The position numbers and the translations under genes were made by a program. The notes beneath the pieces are model-generated. The model had not been told where the DNA came from and did not search any database. It saw only the letters and a program-made list of their open reading frames with translations. From contig CAZUIT010000005.1 of assembly GCA_964620355.1 (NCBI GenBank), positions 11,507 through 75,506 on the forward strand: DNA of 64,000 bases, written 5' to 3'. Of the stretch, positions 1,129 to 58,324 are shown piece after piece. This DNA is from an uncultured Burkholderiales bacterium (lineage in GTDB: Bacteria > Bacteroidota > Bacteroidia > UBA8524). The stretch's first letter is position 1. Each line of letters starts with the position of its first letter.

Positions 1129-2121
1129 TTAATCTTCGTCTAAATTGTACTTAGCGACATCCATTCCGAAGGTCAATCCTTTTTCACGTACCAATTCTTC
1201 TAATTCAGTCAACGATTTTTTACCGAAGTTTCTGAATTTCAAAAGGTCCGCAATATCATAACTTACAAGTTCACCAAGAGTTTTAATCTCAGCAGCTTTC
1301 AAGCAGTTGTATGCACGTACTGATAGATCGAGGTCGGCCAATGAAGTTTTGAGCAATTTGCGCATATGCAACATATTCTCATCTACTTCAGCTGGAGCAG
1401 ACTTCACTTGGTTATCCAAGGTGATCTTCTCATCTGAGAACAACATAAAATGTTGAATCAAGATACGGGCAGCTTCCTTCAAAGCATCTTCTGGATGGAT
1501 TGATCCATCAGTAGCAACTTCTAGGAGAAGTTTCTCGTAATCTGTTTTTTGCTCAACACGGTAGTCCTCTACGTGGTATTTCACATTTTTGATAGGCGTA
1601 TAGATCGAGTCAATTGGAATAACACCAATTACTGAATCTTTAACCTTATTTTCTTCTGCCGGAACGTATCCTCTACCCTTATTGATTGTCAATTCTATTT
1701 CGAAATTAACAAATGGCTCCATGTTACAGATAACCAAATCTGGGTTTAGAACTTCAAAAGCGGCAGTGAAGCGAGAGATATCACCAGCGGTGAATTGTTC
1801 TCTTCCTTTGATGGAAACGAAGATTTTTTCGTTGTCCGCCACATCACCAACTTTCTTGAAACGTACCTGCTTGAGGTTTAGAATAAGCTCAACCACATCT
1901 TCCACTACCCCTTTGATGGTAGAAAACTCATGTTCCACACCAGGAATTTTGATGGAGGTGATGGCATATCCTTCGAGTGAAGAAAGTAAAATTCTTCTAA
2001 GGGCGTTACCAATGGTTACCCCATAACCTTTTTCCAGGGGACGGAATTCAAACTGACCAAAGAAGTCAGTTTCTTTATGCATGATTACCTTATCGGGTTT
2101 CTGAAAAGCAAGTATTGCCAT
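1129..2121 (-). CDS. rpoA: DNA-directed RNA polymerase subunit alpha
   Basis: 330 aa. It has the alpha N-terminal and C-terminal domain motifs (..[17 protein letters not shown].., ..[10 protein letters not shown]..) and lies between rpsD and rplQ. Confidence 0.95.
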
Positions 2122-2145
2122 GGATTAATCGGATTAAGGAGTGGA

Positions 2146-2751
2146 TTATTTAGAGTAGAGTTCGACGATGAGTTGTTCCTTGATGTTCTCAGGGATTTGC
2201 TCACGCTCAGGATATCCTACAAAGGTTCCTTTTAAATCATTTGTATTCCAGTCAAGCCAGTTGAAACGTTTTACACCACGTGAAAGTGAATCAGCGATTA
2301 CTTCCAATGATTTAGACTTTTCACGAATCTCAACAACATCACCTGGACGCAATTCGTAAGAAGGAATATTCACCACATCACCGTTAACGGTAATATGTCT
2401 GTGACTAACCAACTGACGTGCACCATCACGTGTAGGAGCAATTCCTAAACGGAATACGGTATTGTCTAAGCGAGACTCAAGCAAACGGAGTAAGTTTTCA
2501 CCTGTAACTCCAGTTTTACGTGCAGCTTTTTTAAAGGTGTTACGGAATTGTTTTTCCAACACACCATAGGTGTACTTCGCTTTTTGCTTTTCCATCAACT
2601 GAATGGCGTATTCAGATTGTTTCTTTCTCTTACGAGTTTGTCCGTGTTGTCCCGGAGCATAATTCTTCTTATCGAGAGCCTTGTCAGGTCCAAAGATTGG
2701 TTCTTTGAATCTACGCGCAATTTTCGATTTGGGGCCAGTATATCTTGCCAT
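2146..2751 (-). CDS. rpsD: 30S ribosomal protein S4
   Basis: [15 protein letters not shown]..., 201 aa. Confidence 0.95.
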
Positions 2752-2771
2752 TTCTTCTTATTCTGAAAGCC

Positions 2772-3167
2772 TTAAATTCTTCTTCTTTTAGACGGTCTAC
2801 ATCCATTATGAGGGAGTGGAGTGATATCTTTAATAGACATTACTTCCAATCCAATGGTTTGTAGGTTACGGATTGCAGACTCACGTCCTGATCCTGGTCC
2901 TTTTACAAATACGTCAACTTTTCTTAAGCCTAGATCGTAAGCAACTTTGCCACAATCGTGTGCTGCAGTTTGTGCTGCGTATGGAGTGTTTTTCTTGGAT
3001 CCTCTGAATCCCATTTTACCAGCAGATGACCAGGAGATTACCTGACCTACTTGATTGGTAACGGAGATGATGATATTGTTAAAAGTCGCCTGGATATGTA
3101 CTTGTCCAAGTGCTTCAACATTCACTACTCTTTTTTTGTTTGATTTCTTTGCTGTAGCCATTATCAA
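2772..3167 (-). CDS. rpsK: 30S ribosomal protein S11 (start possibly 3161)
   Basis: ..[17 protein letters not shown].. is an S11 signature. Confidence 0.9.
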
Positions 3168-3173
3168 TTCAGA

Positions 3174-3551
3174 TTATTTCGTAGCTTTTTTCTTACCTGC
3201 TACAGTTTTTCTCTTTCCTTTACGAGTACGTGCGTTTGTGCTTGTACGTTGACCTCTTACCGGAAGACCTCTTCTATGTCTTAGTCCACGGTAACATCCA
3301 ATATCTAAAAGACGTTTGATGTTAAGTTGAGTTTCTGAACGAAGCTCTCCTTCAACGCGGATGTTTTCCGTGATGAAGTTACGGATGGCTGTTTGCTCAT
3401 CATCGTCCCATTCTTGAACTTTCTTATTGTGGTCGATGCCACAAGCCGTCAAAATGCGTGCAGCATTTGCAGGACCTACACCAAATATATAGGTGAGTCC
3501 GATTACTCCGCGTTTATTTTTCGGTAAATCAATACCAGCAATCCTTGCCAT
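3174..3551 (-). CDS. rpsM: 30S ribosomal protein S13
   Basis: [14 protein letters not shown]... Confidence 0.95.
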
Positions 3552-17001: not shown

Positions 17002-17400
17002 TTATTTCTTCTTAGCTGCTTCTTGTCCTGGCTTAGGACGTTTCGCGCCGTATTTAGACCTTCTTTGTCTTCTTCCTTCAACACCAGCTGTGTCAAGGGC
17101 TCCACGAACAATGTGATAACGCACACCCGGCAAGTCTTTTACCCTTCCTCCACGTACGAGTACGATAGAGTGTTCTTGTAGGTTATGACCTTCTCCTGGG
17201 ATATAAGCATTTATCTCCTTTCCGTTCGTCAAACGTACACGCGCTACTTTACGCATTGCTGAGTTTGGTTTCTTCGGAGTGGTGGTATACACACGTGTGC
17301 AAACTCCTCTTCTTTGTGGGCATGAGTTCAACGCCGGTGATTTACTCTTATCAACTAGCGAAGTGCGCCCTTTCCTTACTAATTGCTGTATGGTTGGCAT
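17002..17400 (-). CDS. rpsL: 30S ribosomal protein S12
   Basis: [12 protein letters not shown].. ..PKKPNSA.RKV.. Confidence 0.95.
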
Positions 17401-17741
17401 ATTTTTCCTGTAACTTCCTAAAATTTAAGGACGGCAAAGGTACGTCTAATTTCAATAAAACCAAATAGGTGCGAGAAAAATTTTACCATCCTTTTAAGGA
17501 CTGAAAATCACACACAAACCATTTATGAATTGTGATTTATGAATTGTGATTTAAGAAGTAGGATTTGGAAAAGTGATCGGGTTGACGCTTCCTCCTTCAA
17601 CGACGAAACTTTTTCAACAAAGCCAGAATCTGCTCGCGTGGAGTTTATAGAAACCCTTTGCCGTTCGGTCCGGAGGACCAGAACGGCTTGCTAGTCGTCG
17701 AGGCTTAAATTCTCCTCATCTCCTCACTCCTCATCTCCTCA
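17401..17741 (-). promoter_or_regulatory. 340-nt non-coding region between the topA stop and the rpsL start. It is the presumed promoter/5' leader of the str-S10-spc-alpha super-operon and carries tandem repeats and a strong hairpin.
   Basis: No ORF of 60 aa or more on either strand. 15-mer x2 (17712-17741), 14-mer x2 (17521-17548), GC hairpin gccgttcggtcc-gga-ggaccagaacggc (17660-17687). Confidence 0.4.
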
Positions 17742-20075
17742 CTACTTCTTCGCCTTCCCTCTTCTCCCCTTCAGTGCAGCTGCAGATTTCTCCATAAAAT
17801 CCACCGCCTCTTCGTAGGTGATTTTAATAGCGTCCTCATGGCGTGCCTTTGGAATCTTGAAGTTGTCCTTACCTTTCTTTAGATAAGGTCCCCAGCGACC
17901 GTTTAAAACCTGCAGGTCGGTATCCTCATCAAAAACCTTGATAAGCTTCTCGGCGTCGGCTTTTCTTTTGGCAAGAATAACCTCAATCGCTCGTTCTTGA
18001 TTTATTTGATATGGGTCGTCCTCTTTTGGGATGCTATAAAAGGCCTTTTGATGCTGAACATACGGACCAAAACGACCAATAGCCACTTTCATCTCTGTCC
18101 CTTCAAAATCACCAATCATCCTCGGCATTTTAAATAAATCTAATGCCTCTTCTAAAGTTAAGGTTTCCATACTCTGTCCTGCTCGCAAGCTGGCATAGGT
18201 GGGTTTCTCTTCCTCCGACGGTGGGGCAATCTGTGCAAAAGGACCATATCGACCCATACGAACGGTAATTGGTAAACCGCTTACGGGGTGCGTACCCAAT
18301 TCGCGCTCGCCTGTTACTCTGTCGGCCTCATCAATCGTTTTATCTACCGTCTTATGGAATGGCCCATAAAACTTCGTGAGCATATCCGTCCAGCTTTTTA
18401 AGCCTTCCGCAATCTCATCAAACTCCTTTTCTACATTGGCCGTGAAACTGTAATCCATGATTCCATCGAAATGCTCTACCAAGAAATCATTGACTAAGCT
18501 GCCAATATCAGTAGGGAAAAGTTTTGATTTTTCTGCCCCGGTATTTTCAGTAAGTGTGCTGGTTTCAACTTTTGCGTTTTGTAAAATCAACTCCTGGTAG
18601 TTGCGTTCACGACCTACTCGGTCTTCTTTCACAACATACCCTCTTTTCTGAATCGTAGAAATGGTTGGGGCATAAGTAGAAGGACGACCAATACCTAGCT
18701 CTTCGAGTTTCTTCACCAAACTTGCTTCTGTATACCTCGGAGCGGCACGGGTGAATTTCTCTGTCGCTGTGATGCGCTCCATTTGAAGCAGGTCTCCAGC
18801 CTTTACATCAGGCAGTAATCCATCGTCGGCATCTTCGTTCTCTTCATCAGTTCCTTCTAAGTATACTTTTAAGAAACCTTCAAACTTGATCACCTCTCCG
18901 CTTGCCAAAAATTCCTTTTCGCTTGCGGTGCTTGACCCAATTGCAATATGAATGACGGTCTTCTCTAATGCCGCATCACTCATCTGAGAAGCTATAGACC
19001 TTTTCCAGATGAGGTCATAAAGTCGTTTATCTGATCCATCCCCAGCAATACTATGTTTATCAAAATAGGTTGGACGTATCGCCTCATGCGCTTCTTGTGC
19101 GCTGGCGGTTTTGGTATTGTACTTTCTGGTCTTTGAAAATTCTTTGCCGTAAGCTTTTTCGATTTCATCCTTGGCGGCGTTCAATGCGAGCTCCGAAAGG
19201 TTGACACTATCGGTACGCATATAGGTAATATGACCCGCTTCATAAAGTTTCTGAGCAACGGCCATGGTCTGCGCCACAGAGAAACCTAGTTTTCTACTCG
19301 CCTCTTGTTGGAGGGTAGATGTGGTAAATGGTGCGGCTGGAGTTCTTTTCCCCGGCTTGGTTTCAACCCGATCCACCGTGAAATCAGCAGCAGTGCAGGC
19401 CTCTAAAAATGCCTTGGCTTCTCCTTCTGTTTTGAAACGCTTTGGCAGCTCGGCTCTAAAATGTTTATTCTCCTTTGTATCATGGAATATAGCGATTACC
19501 CGAAATGCAGAATCTGCATTAAAGTCGGTAATTTCTCTTTCACGCTCTACAATTAGGCGCACAGCTACTGACTGCACACGCCCTGCCGATAGGGAAGGTT
19601 TTACTTTCTTCCATAATACGGGCGACAGTTCAAAACCCACAATACGATCAAGTATACGTCGTGCTTGTTGTGCATTGACTAAGTCTTGATTGATAATTCG
19701 CGGATTTTCAATTGCCTTTAAAATTGCCGGCTTGGTAATTTCGTGGAAGACAATTCGTTTTGTTTTGCTATGATCCAGCTTGAGTACTTCCGCTAGGTGC
19801 CAAGAAATAGCTTCCCCTTCGCGGTCCTCATCCGAAGCCAACCAAACAACTTCTGCTGCTTTGGCTAATTTCTTTAATTCGGCGACCACCTGCTTCTTAT
19901 CGTCAGGTACTTGATAAATAGGCTTAAATCCATTTTCAATATCCACCCCATTATGCTCCTTTGCCAAGTCTCTAATATGACCATAACACGATTTCACAGT
20001 AAAATCACTACCGAGAAAACCTTCTATGGTTTTAGCCTTAGCTGGAGACTCCACAATCACAAGATTCTTTGCCAT
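17742..20075 (-). CDS. topA: DNA topoisomerase I
   Basis: 777 aa. Toprim N-terminus MAKNLVIVESPAKAKTIEGFLG.. and C-terminal zinc-ribbon-like/Lys-rich repeats. Confidence 0.9.
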   Translation of the reverse strand: MAKNLVIVESPAKAKTIEGFLGSDFTVKSCYGHIRDLAKEHNGVDIENGFKPIYQVPDDKKQVVAELKKLAKAAEVVWLASDEDREGEAISWHLAEVLKLDHSKTKRIVFHEITKPAILKAIENPRIINQDLVNAQQARRILDRIVGFELSPVLWKKVKPSLSAGRVQSVAVRLIVEREREITDFNADSAFRVIAIFHDTKENKHFRAELPKRFKTEGEAKAFLEACTAADFTVDRVETKPGKRTPAAPFTTSTLQQEASRKLGFSVAQTMAVAQKLYEAGHITYMRTDSVNLSELALNAAKDEIEKAYGKEFSKTRKYNTKTASAQEAHEAIRPTYFDKHSIAGDGSDKRLYDLIWKRSIASQMSDAALEKTVIHIAIGSSTASEKEFLASGEVIKFEGFLKVYLEGTDEENEDADDGLLPDVKAGDLLQMERITATEKFTRAAPRYTEASLVKKLEELGIGRPSTYAPTISTIQKRGYVVKEDRVGRERNYQELILQNAKVETSTLTENTGAEKSKLFPTDIGSLVNDFLVEHFDGIMDYSFTANVEKEFDEIAEGLKSWTDMLTKFYGPFHKTVDKTIDEADRVTGERELGTHPVSGLPITVRMGRYGPFAQIAPPSEEEKPTYASLRAGQSMETLTLEEALDLFKMPRMIGDFEGTEMKVAIGRFGPYVQHQKAFYSIPKEDDPYQINQERAIEVILAKRKADAEKLIKVFDEDTDLQVLNGRWGPYLKKGKDNFKIPKARHEDAIKITYEEAVDFMEKSAAALKGRRGKAKK

Positions 20076-22288: not shown

Positions 22289-23590
22289 CTATACTATTTC
22301 TGACTTCAATTTACCTTCCATTCTTGCTACTGAACAGCAAACTGCTGCATCACCAGTTACATTCACGGCTGTGCGGCACATATCCAAGATTCGATCTACT
22401 CCCAAAATGAGAGCAATTCCTTCTACAGGGACATTCACACTATTTAAAACAATCACCAGCATAACAACTCCTGCTCCAGGAACTCCGGCAGAGCCCACTG
22501 AACTAAGTAATGCGGTAAGAATTATGGTTAACTGTTCCAATAAAGTCAAGTCCATATTAAAGACCTGAGCAATAAAGACAGCGGCGATGGCTTGGTAACA
22601 TGACGTACCATCCATATTGATTGTTGCACCAAGGGGTAAAACAAATCCAGTTATTTCTTCATCTACCCCTAATTCCTCTTCACAGTTCTCCATATTCACG
22701 GGTAAGGTGGCATTCGAGGAGCTGGTTGAAAAAGCCAATAGTTGAACCGGACGCATCTTCCTTAAAAAGTCCCAAACATTCATCCGAGCTACGAACTTCA
22801 CCAGGCCTAAATAGGTAATAACCAGATGAAGAAATAAGGCCAATAGCACGGTAAATGAATATACACCTAAGGCGGAGAGCAGTCCCAAAATCTGGGATGG
22901 ATCATCCTTGGCTAGATCGACAATCACTGCACTTAACAGAGCAAATACTCCCAAAGGAGCAATAATCATTATCAGGTCTACAATTTTCATGACGACCTCA
23001 TTGGCACTGTCCATTAGCTTGACCAATGGCGCCGACTTTTCATTCGGAATGAGGGTGATAGCGATTCCCAAGAAAACGGCGAATATGACGATTTGAAGCA
23101 TATTGCCATTGTCACCCGCGGCCTCAATCACATTGCTCGGGAACAAATCAACAAGCGGTTGCAATGCCGGACGATTCTTGACTTCCTCAGCCGTTTTGGT
23201 CTTTTCCAACATTTGTTCCTGATTTCCCTGCATGAGCATGTCGCGGGTTTCTGCAGAAATCTGTTTCCCGGGTTGTATCACATTAACCAGTACCAAGCCT
23301 ATGGTTATCGCTATTACCGTAGTCGACACAAATATTCCAATGGTCTTGCCCCCTATTCGGCCGAGCTTACCAATATCATTTAGGCTGGCAATCCCAGTAA
23401 CCAAGGAGGTTAAAATCATAGGGATAGCAATCAGTTTGAGCAAGTTCATAAAAATGGTACCGAAGGGGTGGATATAGTCTTTGCTAAACCCAATCCAAGC
23501 CGTTCCAAGGTTCACTGCGGCAATTCCCCAAGCTAAACCGAGGATCATACCGAGCAATATTTTTACATGTAAGGGTGTTTTTTTTATCAT
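22289..23590 (-). CDS. Dicarboxylate/amino acid:cation symporter (SLC1/GltP-DctA family)
   Basis: 433 aa polytopic. Family-like motifs and overall topology. Its start overlaps the aroC stop by 4 nt. Confidence 0.8.
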   Translation of the reverse strand: MIKKTPLHVKILLGMILGLAWGIAAVNLGTAWIGFSKDYIHPFGTIFMNLLKLIAIPMILTSLVTGIASLNDIGKLGRIGGKTIGIFVSTTVIAITIGLVLVNVIQPGKQISAETRDMLMQGNQEQMLEKTKTAEEVKNRPALQPLVDLFPSNVIEAAGDNGNMLQIVIFAVFLGIAITLIPNEKSAPLVKLMDSANEVVMKIVDLIMIIAPLGVFALLSAVIVDLAKDDPSQILGLLSALGVYSFTVLLALFLHLVITYLGLVKFVARMNVWDFLRKMRPVQLLAFSTSSSNATLPVNMENCEEELGVDEEITGFVLPLGATINMDGTSCYQAIAAVFIAQVFNMDLTLLEQLTIILTALLSSVGSAGVPGAGVVMLVIVLNSVNVPVEGIALILGVDRILDMCRTAVNVTGDAAVCCSVARMEGKLKSEIV

Positions 23591-24663
23591 AGTCGCGCTT
23601 GCTGCATCATCATTAAATCTATCAAAACCAAGGCCGTCATTGCTTCTACAATGGGCACTGCTCTAGGTACCACACAAGGATCATGACGCCCTTTTGCTTG
23701 TAGGGTAATATTTTCACCGATACGGTTCACGCTATCTTGTTGGATGCGAATGGTTGAAACAGGTTTAAAGCCTACCCTAAAAAAAAGTGGCATGCCCGAA
23801 CTTATTCCTCCCAACACCCCGCCAGCGCGATTTGTTCGTGTTTGTATTGTTCCTTCACTGCTCTCAAAGGCATCATTAGCCTCAGATCCCTTCATGCTGC
23901 TCAAGGCAAAACCCTCTCCCATTTCAAAGCCTTTCACTGCATTGATGGAAAACATGGCATGGGCTAATTCAGCCGGAAGCTTCTTAAATTGCGGTTCGCC
24001 CCATCCTGCAGGAACCCCTTTGGCGACGCAAGATATTATTCCTCCCAAACTATCACCCAATTCTTTTGCTTCCAATATCGCCTCGCGCATGGCTTCAGCC
24101 GCCTTCGTATCCGGACAACGTACCTCATTACTTTCAATCAAAGAAAGATCAAGAGATTCAGGTGCCAACTCACTTTTCACCGAACCTACTGACGAAACAT
24201 AGGCTTGGATACTAACTCCCTTTGATGCCAATATTTGCTGGGCTATTGCTCCTGCACAAACCCAAGGTGCCATGGTACGAGCAGAACTTCTCCCGCCACC
24301 ACGGTGATCACGGATACCAAACTTCTTATCTAGGGTATAGTCGGAATGTCCAGGACGGTACACCTCTTTCAAGTCATCATAATCCTCACTGCGAGAATCC
24401 TTATTGGGAATGGTAAATGCGATTGGAGCACCAGTGGTTTTTCCTTCAAATAATCCAGAAAGGAAGGTGGGGATATCGTGTTCAGTACGACTTGTGCTTA
24501 GCGCAGATTGACCCGGTCTGCGACGGTCCATTTGTTTCTGAATGGCCTCAAAATCGAGTGTTATTCCTGCCGGAATCCCGTCAATAACGGCTCCAACAGC
24601 GGAGCCATGACTTTCCCCAAATGTGCTAACGCGAAACAATTCCCCAAATGTGTTGGCCGGCAT
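23587..24663 (-). CDS. aroC: Chorismate synthase (the ORF extends to 24762; the conserved N-terminus begins at MPANTFGELFRVSTFGESHG, start 24663)
   Basis: ..FGESHG.. and ..GGGRSSARTMAP.. motifs. Confidence 0.9.
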   Translation of the reverse strand: MPANTFGELFRVSTFGESHGSAVGAVIDGIPAGITLDFEAIQKQMDRRRPGQSALSTSRTEHDIPTFLSGLFEGKTTGAPIAFTIPNKDSRSEDYDDLKEVYRPGHSDYTLDKKFGIRDHRGGGRSSARTMAPWVCAGAIAQQILASKGVSIQAYVSSVGSVKSELAPESLDLSLIESNEVRCPDTKAAEAMREAILEAKELGDSLGGIISCVAKGVPAGWGEPQFKKLPAELAHAMFSINAVKGFEMGEGFALSSMKGSEANDAFESSEGTIQTRTNRAGGVLGGISSGMPLFFRVGFKPVSTIRIQQDSVNRIGENITLQAKGRHDPCVVPRAVPIVEAMTALVLIDLMMMQQARL

Positions 24664-24689
24664 GCGGCGGCGAAGATAATACGATTTTT

Positions 24690-24737
24690 GCGAGGTTGCG
24701 AGGTTGCGAGGATTCGAGGTTTCGAGGTTTCGAAGTT
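24690..24737. repeat. Six tandem copies of a degenerate 8-mer (G/T)CGAGGTT in the aroC/GNAT divergent intergenic region.
   Basis: gcgaggtt gcgaggtt gcgaggat tcgaggtt tcgaggtt tcgaagtt read directly. Related to the GT-rich repeat near 35.3 kb. Confidence 0.7.
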
Positions 24738-24788
24738 TCCACTTGGCTGTTATCCTATTCAAATGCTAAATTCGTCTAAATTCTTTCT

Positions 24789-25862
24789 ATGTTTCAAGGA
24801 CCATTTCCGCTTTTAGAAACGGGTCGTTTGGTATTGCGAGAAGCCAATGACAGCGATGATCATTCCGTACATTTTCTTCGAAATGATTCAGCCGTAAACC
24901 GCTATGTGAAGCGGAAAGGCTCCAATTCACTCGATGAAGCCGCGGACTTTATCGCACGGGTTCGGAATAACTTTACTGATCAAAAAGGAATATACTGGTG
25001 CATCACACAGAAAGATGACGACACCATGATTGGCTCCATTTGTTTTTGGAATTTTTCGGAGGATATGCGATCTGCTGAGCTTGGTTACGACTTGCATCCT
25101 GATTGGCAAGGAAAAGGAATAATGGCGGAAGCTTTGAGAGCTATACTTTGGCAGGGGTTTTTGAAATTGAAACTTACTTCAGTCTCCGCCTATACCCAAC
25201 ACGATAATGTTTCATCCATACAACTTTTAGTGCGTCATGGTTTTCAGCATGATCCAAAGCTTATCGACGAAGATAACTGGAAGAACAAGGTATTCTTGAT
25301 GGATAGATCAGCTTATTTTGAGCATATCCAACAACCAAAATCATTGAAGCATTTTTTAGAAGTCGCCAATGCGGTAAAGGCGCTACCGTATGGAAGAACC
25401 ACTTCGCGTGATGATCTTTCCTTGGTTCTTACGGAAGGCAAAGGAAGTTGCAGTTCAAAACATGCCTTTTTAGCGGATATTGCTCATAAAAATGGACTAA
25501 AGCAGGTTGACTTGGTTTTAGCCATTTACTTGATGGATGAGCGGAATACACCAGCTATTGGGAAAACATTAGCAAATAGCGGTATACCTTGCATTCCAGA
25601 AGCGCATTGTTACTTAAAAATAGAGGGCAAGCGTCATGACTTCACCCATATAAATGCAGACATCACGGCAATTGAACCGGCCTTGGTTTCTGAGCTCATT
25701 ATCCATCCCGAGCAGGTGAATACTTTTAAAATCGACTACCATAAAGATTATCTGAAAAACTGGATATCTGAGCATAAAGTTGACTTGGATTTTGAGAGCC
25801 TTTGGAACTTGCGCGAGGCCTGTATCAACAAACTAAGTCAAGAATGGGGTGGCAATGATTGA
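24789..25862 (+). CDS. Two-domain protein: an N-terminal GNAT N-acetyltransferase (RimJ/RimL-like) fused to a C-terminal ~180-aa domain of unknown function, which may be a Cys/His/Asp transglutaminase/NAT-like fold.
   Basis: N-terminal GNAT motifs (..IGSICFWNF.., ..QGKGIMAEAL..). The C-terminus has ..EGKGSCSSKHAFLADIA.. then ..AHCYLKIEG..HDF..INAD... Confidence 0.65.
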   Translation: MFQGPFPLLETGRLVLREANDSDDHSVHFLRNDSAVNRYVKRKGSNSLDEAADFIARVRNNFTDQKGIYWCITQKDDDTMIGSICFWNFSEDMRSAELGYDLHPDWQGKGIMAEALRAILWQGFLKLKLTSVSAYTQHDNVSSIQLLVRHGFQHDPKLIDEDNWKNKVFLMDRSAYFEHIQQPKSLKHFLEVANAVKALPYGRTTSRDDLSLVLTEGKGSCSSKHAFLADIAHKNGLKQVDLVLAIYLMDERNTPAIGKTLANSGIPCIPEAHCYLKIEGKRHDFTHINADITAIEPALVSELIIHPEQVNTFKIDYHKDYLKNWISEHKVDLDFESLWNLREACINKLSQEWGGND

Positions 25863-34404: not shown

Positions 34405-35268
34405 TTAAGGCTTGACGAGTTTCTCGAGGTAAACTCCATACCCGCTTTTCTTGAGTGGTTCGGCAAGAGCCAGAAGTTGTTCTTTATTGATGAACCCCAT
34501 GCGGAAAGCCACCTCTTCGATGCAGCCAATCTTTAAACCTTGCCTTTCTTCTATAACTTGAACATACTGTCCGGCTTGCATGAGTGAGGCATGCGTACCT
34601 GTATCAAGCCAGGCGGTACCACGATTCAATATGCCAACCTGCAGTTTACCCTGCTTCAAATATTCTTTGTTAACATCCGTAATTTCATATTCGCCACGCG
34701 GGGAAGGCTCCAAGTCTTTGGCAATTTGCACCACGCTATTATCATAGAAATACAGACCAGGAACTGCATAGGATGATTTTGGCTGAGTCGGTTTTTCTTC
34801 AATGCTCAATACAGTACCACTTTCGTCAAAATCGACCACACCATAACGTTCTGGATCACTTACATGATAGGCAAATACAACGCCCCCAGCAGGGTTGGTT
34901 TTGTCTTGAAGCAATTTGGCTAATCCTGATCCGTAGAAGATATTGTCGCCTAATATCAAGGCTACCTTATCATTTCCTATAAATTTCTCACCAATCACAA
35001 AGGCCTGCGCCAGTCCGTTTGGCACAACTTGTTCCTCGTATACAAATTCACAGCCCAAGTTCTTTCCATCTCCCAAGAGCCGCTTAAAATGGGGTAAGTC
35101 ATGCGGAGTTGATATGATCAGTATCTCGCGTATCCCGGCCATCATCAATACCGATAGCGGATAATAGATCATTGGTTTATCATAAACAGGCATGAGCTGC
35201 TTGCTCATTGCCAAGGTTAAGGGATGGAGGCGGGTTCCGGAGCCGCCAGCGAGTATGATACCTTTCAT
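34405..35268 (-). CDS. rfbA: Glucose-1-phosphate thymidylyltransferase
   Basis: [18 protein letters not shown].. Confidence 0.9.
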
Positions 35269-35273
35269 TTTAA

Positions 35274-35304
35274 GGGGTTTTGGGTTAGAGGTTACGGGTT
35301 AGAG
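35274..35304 (+). repeat. GT-rich element copy A (GGGGTTTTGGGTTAGAGGTTACGGGTTAGAG)
   Basis: Read directly. It sits 5 nt upstream of the rfbA start. Confidence 0.8.
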
Positions 35305-35345
35305 TAATCAATGGTGCAAAATAGTAAGAACCTTTGATATATGAA

Positions 35346-35377
35346 GGGGTTTTGGGTTAGGGGTTGCGGGTTAGCCC
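35346..35377 (+). repeat. GT-rich element copy B (GGGGTTTTGGGTTAGGGGTTGCGGGTTAGCCC)
   Basis: Read directly. It is a direct repeat of copy A and an inverted partner of copy C. Confidence 0.8.
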
Positions 35378-35459
35378 AGTTGGTGATGGAATAATATTGA
35401 CATTTTAATGACACGATTCAATGATTTTTGACATGCGCCTAACAATAGAAGTTTGATTT

Positions 35460-35819
35460 TTGAGTATGAGAAATTTTAAAGAACTTCAGATATGGCATGA
35501 AGCCATGAACCTTGCTGTTAATGCCGATTCGTATTGCAAGTTCCTTCCCGAAAGTGAAAAATATAATTTGACTTCGCAGATAAAACGATCGGCAGTATCT
35601 ATCCCAACCAACATTGCTGAAGGATGCAGCCGGACATCTCAAAAAGAATTTAAAAGATATATTGAAGTAGCAGTTAGGTCAGGCTACGAAGTAGAAAATC
35701 TACTTCTCCTCACTGACAGAATCTTTCTAGAAGAAAAAATGCCATCAAAAGAAATCTTAGACCAGCTGGTAATCCTAGAAAAACGCATGATCCGCTTCTA
35801 CCAAAAAATTCGAGTATAG
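35460..35819 (+). CDS. Four-helix-bundle protein (PF05635 '23S rRNA intervening sequence protein' / Avd-like family)
   Basis: 119 aa. The family-typical ..IPTNIAEGCSRTSQKEF.. motif is present. It is antisense to the surrounding rfb operon. Confidence 0.85.
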   Translation: MSMRNFKELQIWHEAMNLAVNADSYCKFLPESEKYNLTSQIKRSAVSIPTNIAEGCSRTSQKEFKRYIEVAVRSGYEVENLLLLTDRIFLEEKMPSKEILDQLVILEKRMIRFYQKIRV

Positions 35820-35820
35820 C

Positions 35821-35853
35821 GGCTCTAACCTGTAACCCCTAACCCAAAACCCC
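35821..35853 (-). repeat. GT-rich element copy C, inverted orientation (reverse complement GGGGTTTTGGGTTAGGGGTTACAGGTTAGAGCC)
   Basis: Read directly. It ends 2-3 nt from the rfbB stop. Confidence 0.8.
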
Positions 35854-35855
35854 TT

Positions 35856-36905
35856 CTAGGAATAATGTTCAGCATAATACGCCTGATAAGCTCCACTCGT
35901 AACTCCCTCCATCCATTCCGCATTCGCTAGATACCAGTCGATGGTTTTTTCAATTCCTTCTTCAAATTGTAGGCTAGGTTCCCAGCCGAGGTCTTGCATA
36001 ATTTTGTTGGCGTCGATGGCATAGCGGAGATCATGGCCTGCGCGGTCTGTAACATAGGTAATGAGATTCGCAGATTCACCTTCTGAGCGTTTGAGTTTTT
36101 TGTCCATAATGGCACAAACGGTATGCACAATATCGATATTCTTCCACTCATTGAACCCACCAATATTATAGGTTTCCCCTTCCACCCCATCATGAAAAAC
36201 AACATCGATGGCATGGGCATGGTCGATTACAAAAAGCCAGTCGCGAATATTTTCTCCTTTGCCATATACGGGTAAAGGTTTTTTATGGATGATATTATTG
36301 ATCATCAATGGAATCAGCTTTTCTGGAAACTGATTCGGGCCGTAATTATTTGAGCAATTGCTAATAATAATGGGCAGCTTATAGGTATTCCGGTACGCTC
36401 TTACAAAATGGTCGGAAGAAGCTTTTGACGCGGAATAAGGGGATTGCGGATCATATGGAGTATCCTCTAGAAAGAACCCTCCATCGTCCAATGAACCATA
36501 CACCTCATCGGTCGACACATGGTAAAAGCGCTTGCCTTCCATCTTGTCTTTCCAAAGTGTTTTGGCCGCGTTGAGTAAATTCACTGTCCCGATGACATTT
36601 GTCTCCACAAATTCCATTGGGTGGCTGATTGATCGGTCAACATGCGATTCTGCCGCGAGATGAATAACGTTATCGATTTGGTATTCCGTCATGATTTGCA
36701 TCATAGCAGCTCCGTCACGTATATCCGCTTTTAAGAAGCGATAATTTGGGGCGTTTTCAATATCGGTCAGGTTCGCAAGATTTCCCGCGTAAGTGAGTGC
36801 ATCTAAATTGTAAATCATGTACTCAGGGTACTTATTTACAAAGAGCCTCACCACATGGGAGCCGATAAACCCGGCTCCCCCTGTGATCAGCACATTCTTT
36901 TTCAT
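35856..36905 (-). CDS. rfbB: dTDP-glucose 4,6-dehydratase
   Basis: MKKNVLITGGAGFIGSHVV.. with the ..YSASKASSD.. catalytic motif. Confidence 0.9.
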   Translation of the reverse strand: MKKNVLITGGAGFIGSHVVRLFVNKYPEYMIYNLDALTYAGNLANLTDIENAPNYRFLKADIRDGAAMMQIMTEYQIDNVIHLAAESHVDRSISHPMEFVETNVIGTVNLLNAAKTLWKDKMEGKRFYHVSTDEVYGSLDDGGFFLEDTPYDPQSPYSASKASSDHFVRAYRNTYKLPIIISNCSNNYGPNQFPEKLIPLMINNIIHKKPLPVYGKGENIRDWLFVIDHAHAIDVVFHDGVEGETYNIGGFNEWKNIDIVHTVCAIMDKKLKRSEGESANLITYVTDRAGHDLRYAIDANKIMQDLGWEPSLQFEEGIEKTIDWYLANAEWMEGVTSGAYQAYYAEHYS

Positions 36906-54675: not shown

Positions 54676-55845
54676 ATGATGAATAAAACTTGGAGCATTG
54701 CCTGTGTGGCACTGGGAATTTTTACTAGCTCAATTGCGCAAGGGCAAACATTTAAAAACAAGGAAAACGGAAATATCACCTTCACCGTGGTAAAAGACCA
54801 CGACAAAACGGCGGTCGATAATCAATACAGAAGTTCTACTTGCTGGAGCTTTTCGTCGCTATCGTTTTTCGAATCGGAAATTCTTCGTCAAAGTAAAAAG
54901 GAGGTAAATCTTGCCGAAATGTTTGTGGTGAATCATGCTTACCGTGATAAGGCCGACAAATATGTACGCATGCATGGCAATGGAACCTTCGCAGCAGGTG
55001 GGGCTTTTCATGATGCCCTTTATGTGATGAAGAATTATGGCATGGTGCCTCAATCTGCTTATGCTGGAAAAAATGTAGACCCAGAAAATCATGTGCATTG
55101 GGAAATGGATAAAGTGCTCAAGGGTATTGTTGAAGCAGTTGTTGCCAACCCAAATGGCGTATTGAGCCCGGTGTGGAAAACGGCTTTTAACAGTGCTGTA
55201 GACGCTTACTTGGGAGAAATTCCAACAAAATTTGATGTCGATGGAAAATCTTACGATCCAAAATCCTATTTGACTTCCTTGAAAGTGAATCCAGATGACT
55301 ATGTAGTGATTACGTCATTTTCTCATCATCCTTTTTATTCTTCTTTCGTACTCGAAGTTCCAGACAATTGGGCTGCACAATCCTGCTATAATGTTCCTCT
55401 GAATGATTTCCGCGATATTATGAGCAATGCAATCGACAAAGGATACACTTTTGCTTGGGCGGCTGATGTGAGCGAAAAAGGATTTAATTGGAAAAATGGA
55501 GTAGCCATTGTTCCTGAAAAGGGATGGTCAGGCTATGGAAAAGGAGATATCGACAGCCTAACTGACCATGCGCTCCCTCAAATGGTGATTACCCAAGAAA
55601 ACCGCCAAGAGGCTTTCGATAACTTTGAAACGCAAGACGATCATGGAATGCATATTACCGGGATGGTAAAGGACCAAAATGGCACCGTCTATTATAAAGT
55701 GAAAAATTCTTGGGGAAATAAGAGCAATGACTGTGATGGATATCTTTATGCTTCTGAGTCCTATGTCTTGTACAAAAGCACCAATATCATGCTTCATAAA
55801 AATGCCGTACCGAGTGGTATTGCCAAGAAGCTAGGGATTAAATAA
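54676..55845 (+). CDS. pepC: C1B-family cysteine peptidase (aminopeptidase C / bleomycin hydrolase-like) with a signal peptide
   Basis: ..QYRSSTCWSFSSLSFFESE.. is the catalytic Cys region of C1B. Confidence 0.8.
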   Translation: MMNKTWSIACVALGIFTSSIAQGQTFKNKENGNITFTVVKDHDKTAVDNQYRSSTCWSFSSLSFFESEILRQSKKEVNLAEMFVVNHAYRDKADKYVRMHGNGTFAAGGAFHDALYVMKNYGMVPQSAYAGKNVDPENHVHWEMDKVLKGIVEAVVANPNGVLSPVWKTAFNSAVDAYLGEIPTKFDVDGKSYDPKSYLTSLKVNPDDYVVITSFSHHPFYSSFVLEVPDNWAAQSCYNVPLNDFRDIMSNAIDKGYTFAWAADVSEKGFNWKNGVAIVPEKGWSGYGKGDIDSLTDHALPQMVITQENRQEAFDNFETQDDHGMHITGMVKDQNGTVYYKVKNSWGNKSNDCDGYLYASESYVLYKSTNIMLHKNAVPSGIAKKLGIK

Positions 55846-55887
55846 CTGGGATATCTTTTTTCAATTCCGATACCTCTTGGACTAAAA

Positions 55888-55941
55888 ATCCAAGTTCCAA
55901 ATTCCAAGTTCCACTTCGAAGGATTCTTGGAATTTGGTTCC
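55888..55941. repeat. Inverted repeat (12-bp perfect arms ccaaattccaag/cttggaatttgg around a cttcgaag palindrome) between convergent genes
   Basis: Read directly. Related ATTCCAAGT/GGATTTGGAA motifs occur at 33027-33045 and 17560-17570. Confidence 0.5.
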
Positions 55942-55981: not shown

Positions 55982-58324
55982 CTATTGCCATAAAGGCACG
56001 GTTAACTGAATGTTGATATTTCTACCCGGTTCCGGAAGATTCAAATAACGCCAGCGTGAGAGGTGATTGTAGTATGCGATGTCAAAAATATTGCGCACGT
56101 TCACGGCCAAGGATAGTGCATAGTTCTTTTTTACCTGAAAGGAGGAACCTAGTCCGAAATTCACCAAATGATACCCCGGCGTTGTCCGTTCATTGCGATC
56201 CGTTCTTTCTTGCGCATTCGCCCAATTCCAGGCCAAACGGATATAGGCATCCTTCAATATTTTCCAATCTCCTTCGAACTCAATGGCCGATTTCAATTGC
56301 ATTGGTGGGATAAATGGTAGAGGCAATTTCTCCTCCAGATTCTGTGCATAGACATACTCAAAACCTCCTTCAAGATGCAGTGCCTCGACCGGGTGATATT
56401 CTACGCTAAACTCTCCCCCACTCATCAAGGCTTTCGCCTCGGTATATTGAAATACTTGTCCGGCTTCAGGTAAAGGAGAAAATTGAGCGGTTGGTCGGAG
56501 GTAAATATAATTTTGAAAATAGTTCAAATAAGGAGTGATACTCATAAACCAAGATTTGCTCTCATAGTTAAGCCCGGCATCAAACTGAATGGCCTGCTCG
56601 GGGTCGAGGGAAGCATCACCCTTTTCATGACGAAAGGACCCATGGTGAACGCCATTGACACTCAGCTCTTGGGTCGTTGGAATTCGGAAACTTTTCCCCA
56701 GGTTAAGCTTTAAATTCAGTGCATGGGTGAAATATTTCGATAACCCAATTGCGCCTGACCAGTTCAAGAATTCTCTCGTATTTTCAAGCACGCGCACACT
56801 TTCGCCAACAGCAAGTCCATTTATATAATTTGTTTGACGATGACCGCCAATATGGGTCCATCCATAATCTAGGCGCAATCCGCCACTGATTGTCAAGAGC
56901 GGGTTCACATGCCGATTATGGAAAATATAAATTCCTGCTCCAGCGCGTTCAAAATTGGCCAATAGAAACTCATAGCCACCAAAACGATGTGCTTGGTAGA
57001 TTCCAGAAAAACCAAGCGTGCTTTTTCCTTGCTTCCTATCTTGGTAATAGCGGGCATTCAGACTCCCAGTGCTTAACACCAATTCATGCGCCAAGGGGCT
57101 TGTACCGATTGGCTGTCCGTGGGCATGCGGACTCGATTGTTCTTTCCGAATATTCTGCTGAAAACCAGCATCAAGCTCCAGCCAATTTCCACCAAACTGA
57201 ATATTAGAGTTGGAAATTATTTTAAGATGATTAATCTGCTGATTCGGAAGCTCAATATTCCGAGAACTACCATCATCTATTAAATTATACGCCCGGGGAA
57301 TACCAATGGCTCCACTGAATACACCTATATTTTGATTGTAATTGCTAATGCTTATCCGCGAATAGCCCCATTTCCGATGCAGTCCGATTTGACCAGCAAG
57401 ATGTTTTTCTTTTCCTGCTGTATTTTTCAATAATTCCGCTTGAATTGGCAAGGTATATCTGTTATAGGTGAAAGAATCAGCTGGCACACGGTAGTCGCCA
57501 TATTCTAGCCAAGTTGCTCGAAACCGGTAAACCCAACCTGAGCTATTCCCACTAGCCGAGGCTGAGCCACCCATCGTATTATTTACCGATTTATAGATGC
57601 CCTGTACCTTCCCGTCGTGCGTTCCATGCAATGGGATAAGAGGTTGCTTGATATGGATGACGCCTCCCATGGCATCCGATCCATAAAGCAGCGAAGCCGG
57701 ACCTTTAATTATTTCAATCCGTTCTGCATTAAAGGGATCAATCTCTAATCCATGATCTGCTCCCCATTGCTGTCCCTCCTGCTTGATGCCATTTTCTGCC
57801 ACCACTATACGGTTTCCCGACATGCCACGAATAACTGGTTTACTCACCGCCACCCCCATATTGATGCTATTGATGCCCGGTATTTGCTCCAATGCATTGC
57901 TCAGCGTTGGGCCTTGATTTCGTTCTAACGATTTTTCATCCAAGACCTGTACAGAAACCGTATAATCGCGCTGTTCTAACTTCAACGAGTTGTCTTCAAT
58001 CACTGCTTCGTGAAGCTCCAAATCAGAACGGTGCATTTCTATCAATACGGCCTGTGTTGAATCCCCAATCCGCACATGCTGACTAAAAGCATGGTAGCCA
58101 ACAAAAGTTACATGAAGATGGTACGTACCTTTATTGATTCCTTGAAGATGGAAATAGCCTGAATCGTTAGAACTAGTTCCCTGTAATGTTTCATGCAAGT
58201 AAACAGTGGCTCCCAATAAGCCTTGCCCTTTCTCATCTACAATGCGACCTTTCAGTCCATAGGTTTGCGCTTGCACTGATACACAAAAAAGTAAAAGAAA
58301 AAATAGTAGCCCAGATTTTCGCAT
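55982..58324 (-). CDS. TonB-dependent receptor (CarboxypepD_reg + plug + barrel)
   Basis: ..GRIVDEKGQGLLGATVYL..; plug ..PGINSINMGVAVSKPVIRGMSGNRIVV... Confidence 0.8.
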   Translation of the reverse strand: MRKSGLLFFLLLFCVSVQAQTYGLKGRIVDEKGQGLLGATVYLHETLQGTSSNDSGYFHLQGINKGTYHLHVTFVGYHAFSQHVRIGDSTQAVLIEMHRSDLELHEAVIEDNSLKLEQRDYTVSVQVLDEKSLERNQGPTLSNALEQIPGINSINMGVAVSKPVIRGMSGNRIVVAENGIKQEGQQWGADHGLEIDPFNAERIEIIKGPASLLYGSDAMGGVIHIKQPLIPLHGTHDGKVQGIYKSVNNTMGGSASASGNSSGWVYRFRATWLEYGDYRVPADSFTYNRYTLPIQAELLKNTAGKEKHLAGQIGLHRKWGYSRISISNYNQNIGVFSGAIGIPRAYNLIDDGSSRNIELPNQQINHLKIISNSNIQFGGNWLELDAGFQQNIRKEQSSPHAHGQPIGTSPLAHELVLSTGSLNARYYQDRKQGKSTLGFSGIYQAHRFGGYEFLLANFERAGAGIYIFHNRHVNPLLTISGGLRLDYGWTHIGGHRQTNYINGLAVGESVRVLENTREFLNWSGAIGLSKYFTHALNLKLNLGKSFRIPTTQELSVNGVHHGSFRHEKGDASLDPEQAIQFDAGLNYESKSWFMSITPYLNYFQNYIYLRPTAQFSPLPEAGQVFQYTEAKALMSGGEFSVEYHPVEALHLEGGFEYVYAQNLEEKLPLPFIPPMQLKSAIEFEGDWKILKDAYIRLAWNWANAQERTDRNERTTPGYHLVNFGLGSSFQVKKNYALSLAVNVRNIFDIAYYNHLSRWRYLNLPEPGRNINIQLTVPLWQ

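Follow-up and report, generated by a model that had tools for sequence, protein, structure and literature searches.

A four-helix-bundle gene bracketed by inverted heptamer arrays between rfbB and rfbA, and relatives of the same architecture in protein-coding operons

A 587-bp segment separates rfbB and rfbA, two genes of the rhamnose pathway, in a 64-kb stretch of contig CAZUIT010000005.1 from an uncultured member of the Bacteroidota (hereafter the window, meaning all 64,000 nucleotides). It carries, antisense to both genes, a gene for a four-helix-bundle (4HB) protein of the PF05635 family, flanked by inverted arrays of seven-nucleotide units. We regard the segment as probably a cassette of the type known from 23S rRNA as the intervening sequence (IVS), placed here in the mRNA spacer of rfbB–rfbA, with its PF05635 gene looped between the inverted heptamer arrays. 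Together, the window cassette and about 100 relatives show that three puzzles of 20–35 years' standing, hitherto treated apart, concern parts of one architecture: the rRNA IVSs that bear an open reading frame (ORF), the function of the 4HB/S23p proteins other than Avd, and the oriented heptamers of intergenic DNA. Most instances of this architecture lie within ordinary protein-coding operons, some are on viral contigs, and it is not confined to rRNA. Its family-wide occurrence in protein-coding operons appears undescribed; under TIGR02436, PF05635 and the family names, the literature, of which coverage was incomplete, gave no account of an inverted-heptamer cassette in protein-coding operons or phages. 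What seemed a peculiarity of fragmented rRNAs thus becomes a general question, namely how a promoter-less, bracketed gene enters the few bases between coupled genes while the operon stays intact, and what target the ring-shaped 4HB protein binds. Annotation and operon prediction in Bacteroidota are also affected, given that such cassettes split gene pairs of beta-oxidation, haem synthesis, methionine synthase and the rhamnose pathway.

The locus, its gene and its arms

The segment (35269–35855) fills the spacer between two genes of the − strand: rfbB upstream (dTDP-glucose 4,6-dehydratase, 35856–36905; TIGR01181, E 2.1e-139) and rfbA downstream (glucose-1-phosphate thymidylyltransferase, 34405–35268; TIGR01207, E 4.5e-142, and PF00483). 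The 4HB ORF lies on the + strand at 35460–35819 and would encode 119 aa from a TTG start; the family alignment favors the ATG at 35466, which gives a gene at 35466–35819 and a protein of 117 aa (MRNFKEL...). An earlier note on this DNA, made from the sequence alone, had reported a 4HB gene with inverted repeats between rfbB and rfbA. This observation is confirmed, and its placement of the gene and of the repeats was accurate to within a few bases throughout. Since the identical protein occurs on 21 contigs of independent assemblies (JGI, ENA and Logan), with the same neighbors at the loci displayed, an assembly artifact is ruled out.

The protein matches PF05635 with an E value of 1.3e-26 (93.3 bits against a cut-off of 33.8) over profile positions 1–102 of 106, and TIGR02436 with 89.3 bits against a cut-off of 24. 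Its size agrees with the approximately 110–130 aa expected of the PF05635/TIGR02436 family, whose motif SQ..RS..SI..NIAEG..R it carries, and W10, E31, Q38, R41, S45, N49, E52, G53, R56, S72 and E75 are invariant in an alignment of 23 family members. The family is large, with 13,072 clusters at 50% identity matching at E ≤ 1e-3. No further 4HB gene was found in the 64-kb window, and a search of PADLOC and PHROGs with the protein returned no match. Among structures in the PDB, 2GSC is a relative (E 5.4e-13); this entry and 2RLD comprise five chains each, and 2GSC has been described as a homopentameric toroid (PMC4990558).

PF05635 is homologous to Avd of the diversity-generating retroelements (DGRs) (PMC10053308), and some relatives of the window protein also match the bAvd model PF22296. 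Avd and the window protein share a homologous four-helix-bundle fold, with pentameric assembly in the structures of relatives. The locus could accordingly be read as the remnant of a DGR and its gene as an orphaned Avd, a reading that we hold to be extremely improbable. In contrast to Avd, the window gene stands alone in a sugar-nucleotide operon, without a nearby reverse transcriptase or pair of template and variable repeats. The earlier note had also stated that no reverse transcriptase is nearby; in agreement with it, the precomputed Pfam annotation of this locus on contigs L001, L002 and L011 shows none among the genes called up to about 7 kb to each side. A repeat search confined to 34900–36300 of the window found no template–variable pair at the locus, only the arms described below and short pairs at chance level. 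Furthermore, the same stand-alone arrangement recurs at about 90 other loci in housekeeping operons.

The repeats, about 32 nt long, form three arms. Arms A (35272–35304, +) and B (35343–35374, +) are direct copies of each other, and arm C (35823–35855, −) is inverted. Each arm is a tandem array of about 4.3 degenerate GGGTTAG-like heptamers, a make-up that the earlier note had left unremarked. The series of units in the arms is G GGGTTTT GGGTTAG GGGTTRC RGGTTAG, and arm A itself reads AAGGGG TTTTGGG TTAGAGG TTACGGG TTAGAG. Tandem Repeats Finder likewise reports a period of 7 with 3.1–4.3 copies at 35283–35304, 35345–35374 and 35825–35854. With at most one mismatch, the repeat pattern occurs at 35274–35302 (+), 35346–35374 (+) and 35825–35853 (−); no other copy is present in the 64 kb, and 100 shuffles of the window yielded 0 matches. 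Arm C has an outer partner in arm A (35272–35304 with 35823–35855; 33 nt, 94% complementary) and an alternative inner partner in arm B (35343–35374 with 35825–35856; 32 nt, 94% complementary), and both mismatches between B and C would be G–U pairs in + strand RNA. Predicted minimum-free-energy and centroid folds pair the outer arms A and C over ~33 bp on both strands, with fold z-scores of −8.9 (rfb strand) and −4.1 (4HB strand). The cassette thus presents a terminal complementary stem with an ORF in the loop, as in IVSs, as well as tandem heptamers 5′ of an S23p ORF, as in IVSs of the Coxiella type.

The outer arms adjoin the host genes, with 0 nt between arm C and the rfbB stop codon (35856–35858) and 3 nt between arm A and the rfbA ATG. 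Between the arms and the 4HB gene lie a 38-nt spacer from A to B (35305–35342) and a conserved leader of 91 nt (35375–35465). No target-site duplication is present at the ends of the cassette, the flanks reading CATTTT/AAGGGG on one side and CCCCTT/CTAGGA on the other. Rfam at gathering thresholds detected no family in the 64-kb window, rRNA included, and gave only chance-level matches in 35000–36100.

Insertion, turnover and constraint at the junction

Junctions were sampled from 80 metagenomic loci with close RfbA relatives, 25 of which have rfbB upstream on the same strand. The rfbB–rfbA spacer of 15 of these 25 junctions ranges from −4 nt (an ATGA overlap) to 44 nt, and in 12 of the 15 it is at most 5 nt; as judged from their sequences, these 15 junctions are empty sites. 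Given that the junctions of relatives are short or overlapping, the ancestral state is a translationally coupled pair, to which the 587 bp are an addition. The segment is thereby shown to be an insertion relative to the ancestral junction, in keeping with the discrete insertion proposed in the earlier note.

Two further lineages, represented by L119 and L124, have a PF05635 gene in sense orientation precisely at the rfbB–rfbA junction. The cassette of L119 (1960–2500) is flanked on each side by about 10 copies of an 8-nt unit (first AAGGTTAN, then TATAACCN), and the rfbB stop codon falls inside the first unit. In L124 (1900–2500), 10-nt units form a hairpin on each side, the two hairpins being direct repeats of each other. 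The proteins of L119 and L124 are 42% and 36% identical to the window 4HB protein, and the closest relatives in the set lie at other host sites, at ~50% identity for the window protein and 54–59% for the other two. Owing to this low identity, and with their nearest relatives at other host sites, the cassettes of L119, L124 and the window are independent of one another. These data show that cassettes of the 4HB kind came and went at the rfbB–rfbA junction in different lineages.

The host lineage, uncultured Bacteroidota of the class Bacteroidia, is represented by metagenomes only, with two long contigs (L011 and L095) whose EF-G is 97% identical to that of the window. L011 carries the same antisense cassette in the same place. 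On L095 (RfbA 93%), no rfbB lies upstream of rfbA, and a 659-aa ORF stands in its stead; a 5′-truncated fragment of a different PF05635 gene (2279–2430; profile positions 45–92, E 6.6e-8) is located upstream of rfbA in sense orientation. This arrangement points to a rearrangement with its breakpoint within a former cassette.

In the comparison of the window with L011, saturation is seen at synonymous sites (proportion of synonymous differences, pS, 0.67; dS 1.7), and dN/dS is 0.05 for the 4HB gene and 0.044 for rfbB. The 197 non-coding bases from the rfbA ATG to the 4HB ATG are nonetheless 86% identical to those of L011, well above the neutral expectation, and most positions of the A–B spacer are the same in both. 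Because this identity persists despite saturation, the arms, the A–B spacer and the 91-nt leader must be constrained. The window cassette is therefore shown to be old, being common to congeners with saturated synonymous sites, and its gene, its non-coding arms and its leader are shown to be under purifying selection.

Constraint on the arms could also be expected if the repeats were mainly a cis-regulatory leader or attenuator of rfbA and the 4HB gene were incidental. The proximity of arm A to the rfbA ATG, the conservation of the arms between congeners and the C-rich, G-poor array that always lies toward the downstream start codon are consistent with such a role, and direct heptamer repeats close to start codons are known from Beggiatoaceae, cyanobacteria and Bacteroidetes (PMC4679880). 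However, the rfbA genes of relatives stand at overlapping or nearly overlapping junctions without the repeats, so that a conserved rfbA leader, an alternative raised in the earlier note itself, is not upheld. The same kind of array moreover surrounds 4HB genes in unrelated operons and viral contigs, and the 4HB gene is itself under strong purifying selection. We consider a primary role as an rfbA leader improbable.

As to promoters, no convincing motif was seen on either strand of the A–B spacer (35305–35342). Matches in a sigma-70 scan were no better than those in shuffled sequence, including the TTGACA-17-AATGAT match at 35397–35425 in the 4HB leader, and a scan with the Bacteroidetes TAnnTTTG promoter returned only one-mismatch boxes for the 4HB gene and rfbA. 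The 91-nt leader probably supplies a promoter of the 4HB gene's own, the match itself being a weak candidate. Such a leader is not usual in sense cassettes; in other cassettes, a median of 31 nt separates the array from the start codon.

Heptamer arrays across the 4HB family

To place the window cassette within its family, 80 genome loci with 4HB homologs of 35–50% identity were compared, mostly from Bacteroidota, with some from Ignavibacteriales, Calditrichia, Fibrobacteres, KSB1, Nitrospirae, Chloroflexi and Poribacteria. Flanking inverted repeats exceeded the 99th percentile of the control, in which upstream and downstream flanks were paired across loci, in 32 of 89 genes. Periodicity is visible in nearly all inverted arms, and the units differ by locus (TTAGCYN, GAGATNT, AGTAGTA, CAAGAGT and AGTTCAC, among others). 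Self-similarity was strongest at a lag of 7 in 75/91 flanks upstream and 61/91 downstream, compared with 14/270 control segments. The arrays have a median of 4.3–4.4 units and a modal length of 4–5 units, each unit comprising five nearly invariant and two variable positions. They are also polar: G exceeds C in 54 of 66 upstream arrays and C exceeds G in 45 of 50 downstream arrays, such that the G-rich strand reads inward from both ends. Arrays begin a median of 4.5 nt past the upstream stop codon and end a median of 7 nt before the downstream ATG.

The earlier note had asked whether its repeat was enriched around other four-helix-bundle genes. What recurs is the class of flank, an inverted array of locus-specific heptamers, and not the exact 30-bp sequence. 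The note had listed three outcomes as telling against its claim, namely the same arrangement in all relatives with no empty site, no enrichment of the repeats around other such genes, and a conserved rfbA leader; none of them was found. Its description of an antisense cassette holds for the window and represents an exception in the family. Among 86 4HB genes for which both neighbors were called, 76 have the same orientation as both of their neighbors, which stand at median distances of 66 and 46 nt, and only two are antisense between co-directional genes, as in the window.

Host operons include those for 3-hydroxyacyl-CoA dehydrogenase, thiolase and acyl-CoA dehydrogenase, hemC/D–hemE and a split methionine synthase. 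Four beta-oxidation operons (L045, L070, L083 and L091, about 1300–3400), comprising genes for enoyl-CoA hydratase/HCDH, thiolase and acyl-CoA dehydrogenase, hold two 4HB cassettes each, one per intercistronic spacer. The lag-7 threshold was passed by 41% of 4HB-adjacent spacers versus 12% of the other spacers at the same loci, and several of these other spacers are heptamer hairpins without cargo or pairs of arms around about 100 nt of non-coding DNA. Gene-less inverted arrays of this kind lie beside cassette spacers at L090:3991–4062, L059:1621–1683, L041:4600–4809, L048:4583–4768 and L079:4659–4819, with an interior of a few nucleotides or of about 100–130 nt of non-coding DNA; in L041, L048 and L079, their unit is that of the neighboring 4HB cassette.

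The association extends to viruses. In IMG/VR, 17 viral contigs encode 4HB relatives, and most of the 15 full-length genes analyzed (L175–L189, which include GC-rich backgrounds) are bracketed by inverted heptamer arrays. Examples of their units are GGGTGTA/TACACCC directly at the start and stop codons in L180, GTAGTCT in L181, GAGTCTG in L188, and GGCTNTC in L175 and L187.

The 4HB proteins are 50% identical at the same host site versus 45% at different sites, and in 23 of 39 cases the nearest relative shares the host site. Vertical inheritance alone was rejected on these figures, which indicate mixed inheritance. Given that 7, 8 and 10 are not multiples of 3, the units might also serve to place stop codons in all three frames. 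Stops in all frames occur in 38% of upstream arrays versus 29% of phase-permuted controls and in 37–41% of downstream arrays versus 15%; as most arrays lack them, this was rejected as a general rationale.

The locus-specific units also bear on mobility through an element of the miniature inverted-repeat transposable element (MITE) type, as the earlier note had suggested, in which the terminal inverted repeats of a non-autonomous transposon would be recognized by a transposase encoded elsewhere. The 33-nt terminal inverted repeats, the presence or absence of cassettes at the rfbB–rfbA junction and the occurrence of related cassettes at different host sites agree with this possibility. Within the 64-kb window, however, the 30-bp sequence is not dispersed, occurring in only three copies, all of them arms of the one locus, and a target-site duplication is absent. 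The arms show an internal period and differ from locus to locus, unlike the ends bound by transposases, and no transposase lies near the locus in the precomputed annotation. The suggestion was thus not borne out, and we assign a MITE-like origin little probability.

The cassettes can also be compared with established intergenic elements. Correia and MITE elements are short intergenic insertions in operons bounded by inverted repeats, and Correia hairpins are RNase III substrates. In REP–RAYT units (REPtrons), RAYT genes are flanked by inverted repetitive extragenic palindromes (REPs), with cargo-less REP doublets found elsewhere. The heptamer cassettes resemble both in being insertions bounded by inverted repeats, and cargo-less hairpins occur here as well (55885–55935 of the window). 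In contrast to Correia elements and REP–RAYT units, the window arms are locus-specific heptamers rather than a conserved family sequence and come without a target-site duplication. The cargo is likewise different, being a small helical bundle without known motifs of nucleases or recombinases, and not an HUH or DDE enzyme.

Likeness to rRNA intervening sequences and the role of the heptamers

The closest parallel in structure is offered by the IVS of Coxiella burnetii, a segment of 428–444 nt in helix 45 of 23S rRNA with a 28-bp terminal inverted-repeat stem, an S23p (PF05635) ORF in the loop and, before the ORF, three to four tandem GACAGAT heptamers whose number varies by strain (PMC4990558). 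RNase III cleavage has been mapped to mid-stem, at the start of the first heptamer, and horizontal transfer and an origin as a mobile element have been proposed; the S23p ORF is reported to be decaying and probably untranslated (PMC4990558). Like the IVSs of Coxiella, and also those of Leptospira, Brucella, Xanthomonas and Haemophilus, the window cassette has a PF05635 ORF in a loop. It is of similar size (587 nt versus 428–444 nt), shares tandem heptamers before the ORF with Coxiella (four GGGTTAG-like units versus three to four of GACAGAT) and has the sporadic distribution that suggests horizontal transfer in both. Every structural part of the Coxiella IVS, namely ORF, stem and heptamers, is thus present except the rRNA context. 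The earlier note had called the unit stand-alone and its function and mobility unexplored; the first part stands, whereas the architecture matches that of the S23p-encoding IVSs of 23S rRNA (PMC4990558).

The differences are also clear. The window cassette is located in an intercistronic mRNA spacer, not in helix 25, 45 or 9 of 23S rRNA; its ORF is antisense to the host transcript and, in contrast to that of Coxiella, is under purifying selection (dN/dS 0.05); and it possesses a second direct copy of the 5′ arm. Furthermore, RNase III processing has been shown for Coxiella rRNA, while the window cassette is known from sequence alone.

If the cassette behaves as an IVS, a transcript reading through from rfbB to rfbA would have a G-rich 5′ arm complementary to arm C, and this would pair with a C-rich 3′ arm complementary to A or B. 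The base of the resulting duplex of ~33 bp would lie 0 nt from the rfbB stop codon and 3 nt from the rfbA start codon, so that the insert would be looped out and the stop and start codons would be juxtaposed again. By analogy with the rRNA IVS, the duplex would be a substrate of RNase III, and the operon would in this manner tolerate the insert. Such looping would account for how essential operons tolerate cassettes in their tightest spacers, and for the flush position of the arrays against neighboring ORFs. The G-poor array facing the downstream start codon is compatible with keeping the initiation region usable. Given that sense cassettes have no room for a promoter, their expression must come from the host operon, and we infer that most cassettes of the family, being sense-oriented, are expressed in this way. 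The antisense orientation of the window cassette may possibly have arisen through inversion between its own arms.

Several observations weigh against this reading. Across 70 cassettes, arm mismatches show no enrichment of G–U pairs on the sense strand (79 versus 106, p 0.056, in the opposite direction), and transversions among them outnumber transitions (241 versus 185). Arm identity is 0.81 in the best register and still 0.74 at shifts of 7 or 14 nt. By these sequence comparisons, the conserved trait resembles a single heptamer, inverted on either side, more closely than a compensatory base-paired stem, although the window locus, with its near-perfect arms, departs from this family-wide trend. 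The strict 7-nt period, the unit build of five plus two positions and the modal 4–5 units are left unexplained by a stem, and the arm pattern fits protein binding or a generative, array-laying origin as well as it fits RNA pairing. Cleavage of the rfb transcript by RNase III is proposed by analogy only, promoter predictions gave no clear signal for the 4HB gene or rfbA, and inversion as the source of the antisense orientation is a conjecture.

These observations lead to the main competing explanation, in which the heptamer arrays are binding sites of the 4HB protein, with one protomer of a pentamer per heptamer (five conserved bases and two spacer bases). Through such binding, the protein would govern how its own cassette is processed, translated or moved, and the inversion would provide two sites rather than an RNA stem. 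This arrangement can be likened to that of TRAP, which binds GAG repeats, and Avd binds both RNA and reverse transcriptase in DGRs. The modal 4–5 units with their five invariant and two variable positions, the five chains of the relatives 2GSC and 2RLD, and a strict period and strand polarity that go beyond what pairing alone would require, with no compensatory signature in the arms, all favor binding. In addition, the association is seen in viral contigs and across phyla, so that any partner of the arrays has to be carried along by the cassette itself, whose only gene is the 4HB gene. However, the heptamers vary widely while the proteins share the motif SQ..RS..SI..NIAEG..R, which would demand fast-co-evolving residues; periods of 8 nt (L119) and 10 nt (L124) exist, and the same operons also contain arrays that lack a 4HB gene. 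We regard direct binding as possible but, on these grounds, unlikely, and continue to favor the IVS-type cassette.

Heptamers of a comparable kind have a history of their own. Cyanobacterial heptamers of the short tandemly repeated repetitive (STRR) type were reportedly described by Mazel and colleagues in 1990. Oriented tandem heptamers directly upstream of start codons have been documented in Beggiatoaceae (TAACTGA), cyanobacteria and five Bacteroidetes, and a translational role has been proposed (PMC4679880). The TAACTGA-type arrays contain 2–6 or more copies, and the same spacer in close relatives can be without them (PMC4679880). The window arrays share with the TAACTGA and STRR types the tandem intergenic 7-nt units, the orientation by strand and the position a few nucleotides before a start codon. 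They differ in that the reported arrays are direct, without a link to PF05635 or an inverted pair bracketing a gene (PMC4679880), whereas those of the window form an inverted pair around a 4HB gene.

A wider and quite doubtful proposal would unite these elements: PF05635 genes and inverted heptamer arrays would form a self-contained class of mobile cassettes spanning phyla, with the pentamer as the trans-acting partner of the arrays, the rRNA IVSs as the first members to be noticed and cargo-less arrays as derivatives. If this were true, a pentameric 4HB protein, with one protomer per heptamer, would mediate maintenance, processing or movement without a canonical transposase, integrase or reverse transcriptase. 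Heptamer hairpins and arrays without cargo, as found in spacers of Bacteroidota, would then be non-autonomous derivatives or landing pads, and the STRR and TAACTGA repeats might be so too.

Short-period arrays are also found elsewhere in the window. A gene-less heptamer hairpin at 55885–55935 (AAATCCA AGTTCCA AATTCCA AGTTCCA, a short loop and TTGGAATTTGGTTCC) occupies the spacer between the convergent ORFs 54676–55845 (+) and 55982–58324 (−), and resembles either the arms of a cassette without its gene or a heptamer-based terminator. Two arrays that are not mutually complementary, at 17521–17557 (ATTTATG/AATTGTG units) and 17711–17743 (TCTCCTCA four times), bracket ~150 nt within a 340-nt spacer between the ORFs 17002–17400 (−) and 17742–20075 (−), upstream of a putative rpsL–rpsG–fusA cluster in which fusA was confirmed. 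Lastly, an array with a period of 8 (CGAGGTTT, 6.1 copies, 90% matches) lies at 24691–24739, in the region of the divergent ORFs 23587–24762 (−) and 24789–25862 (+).

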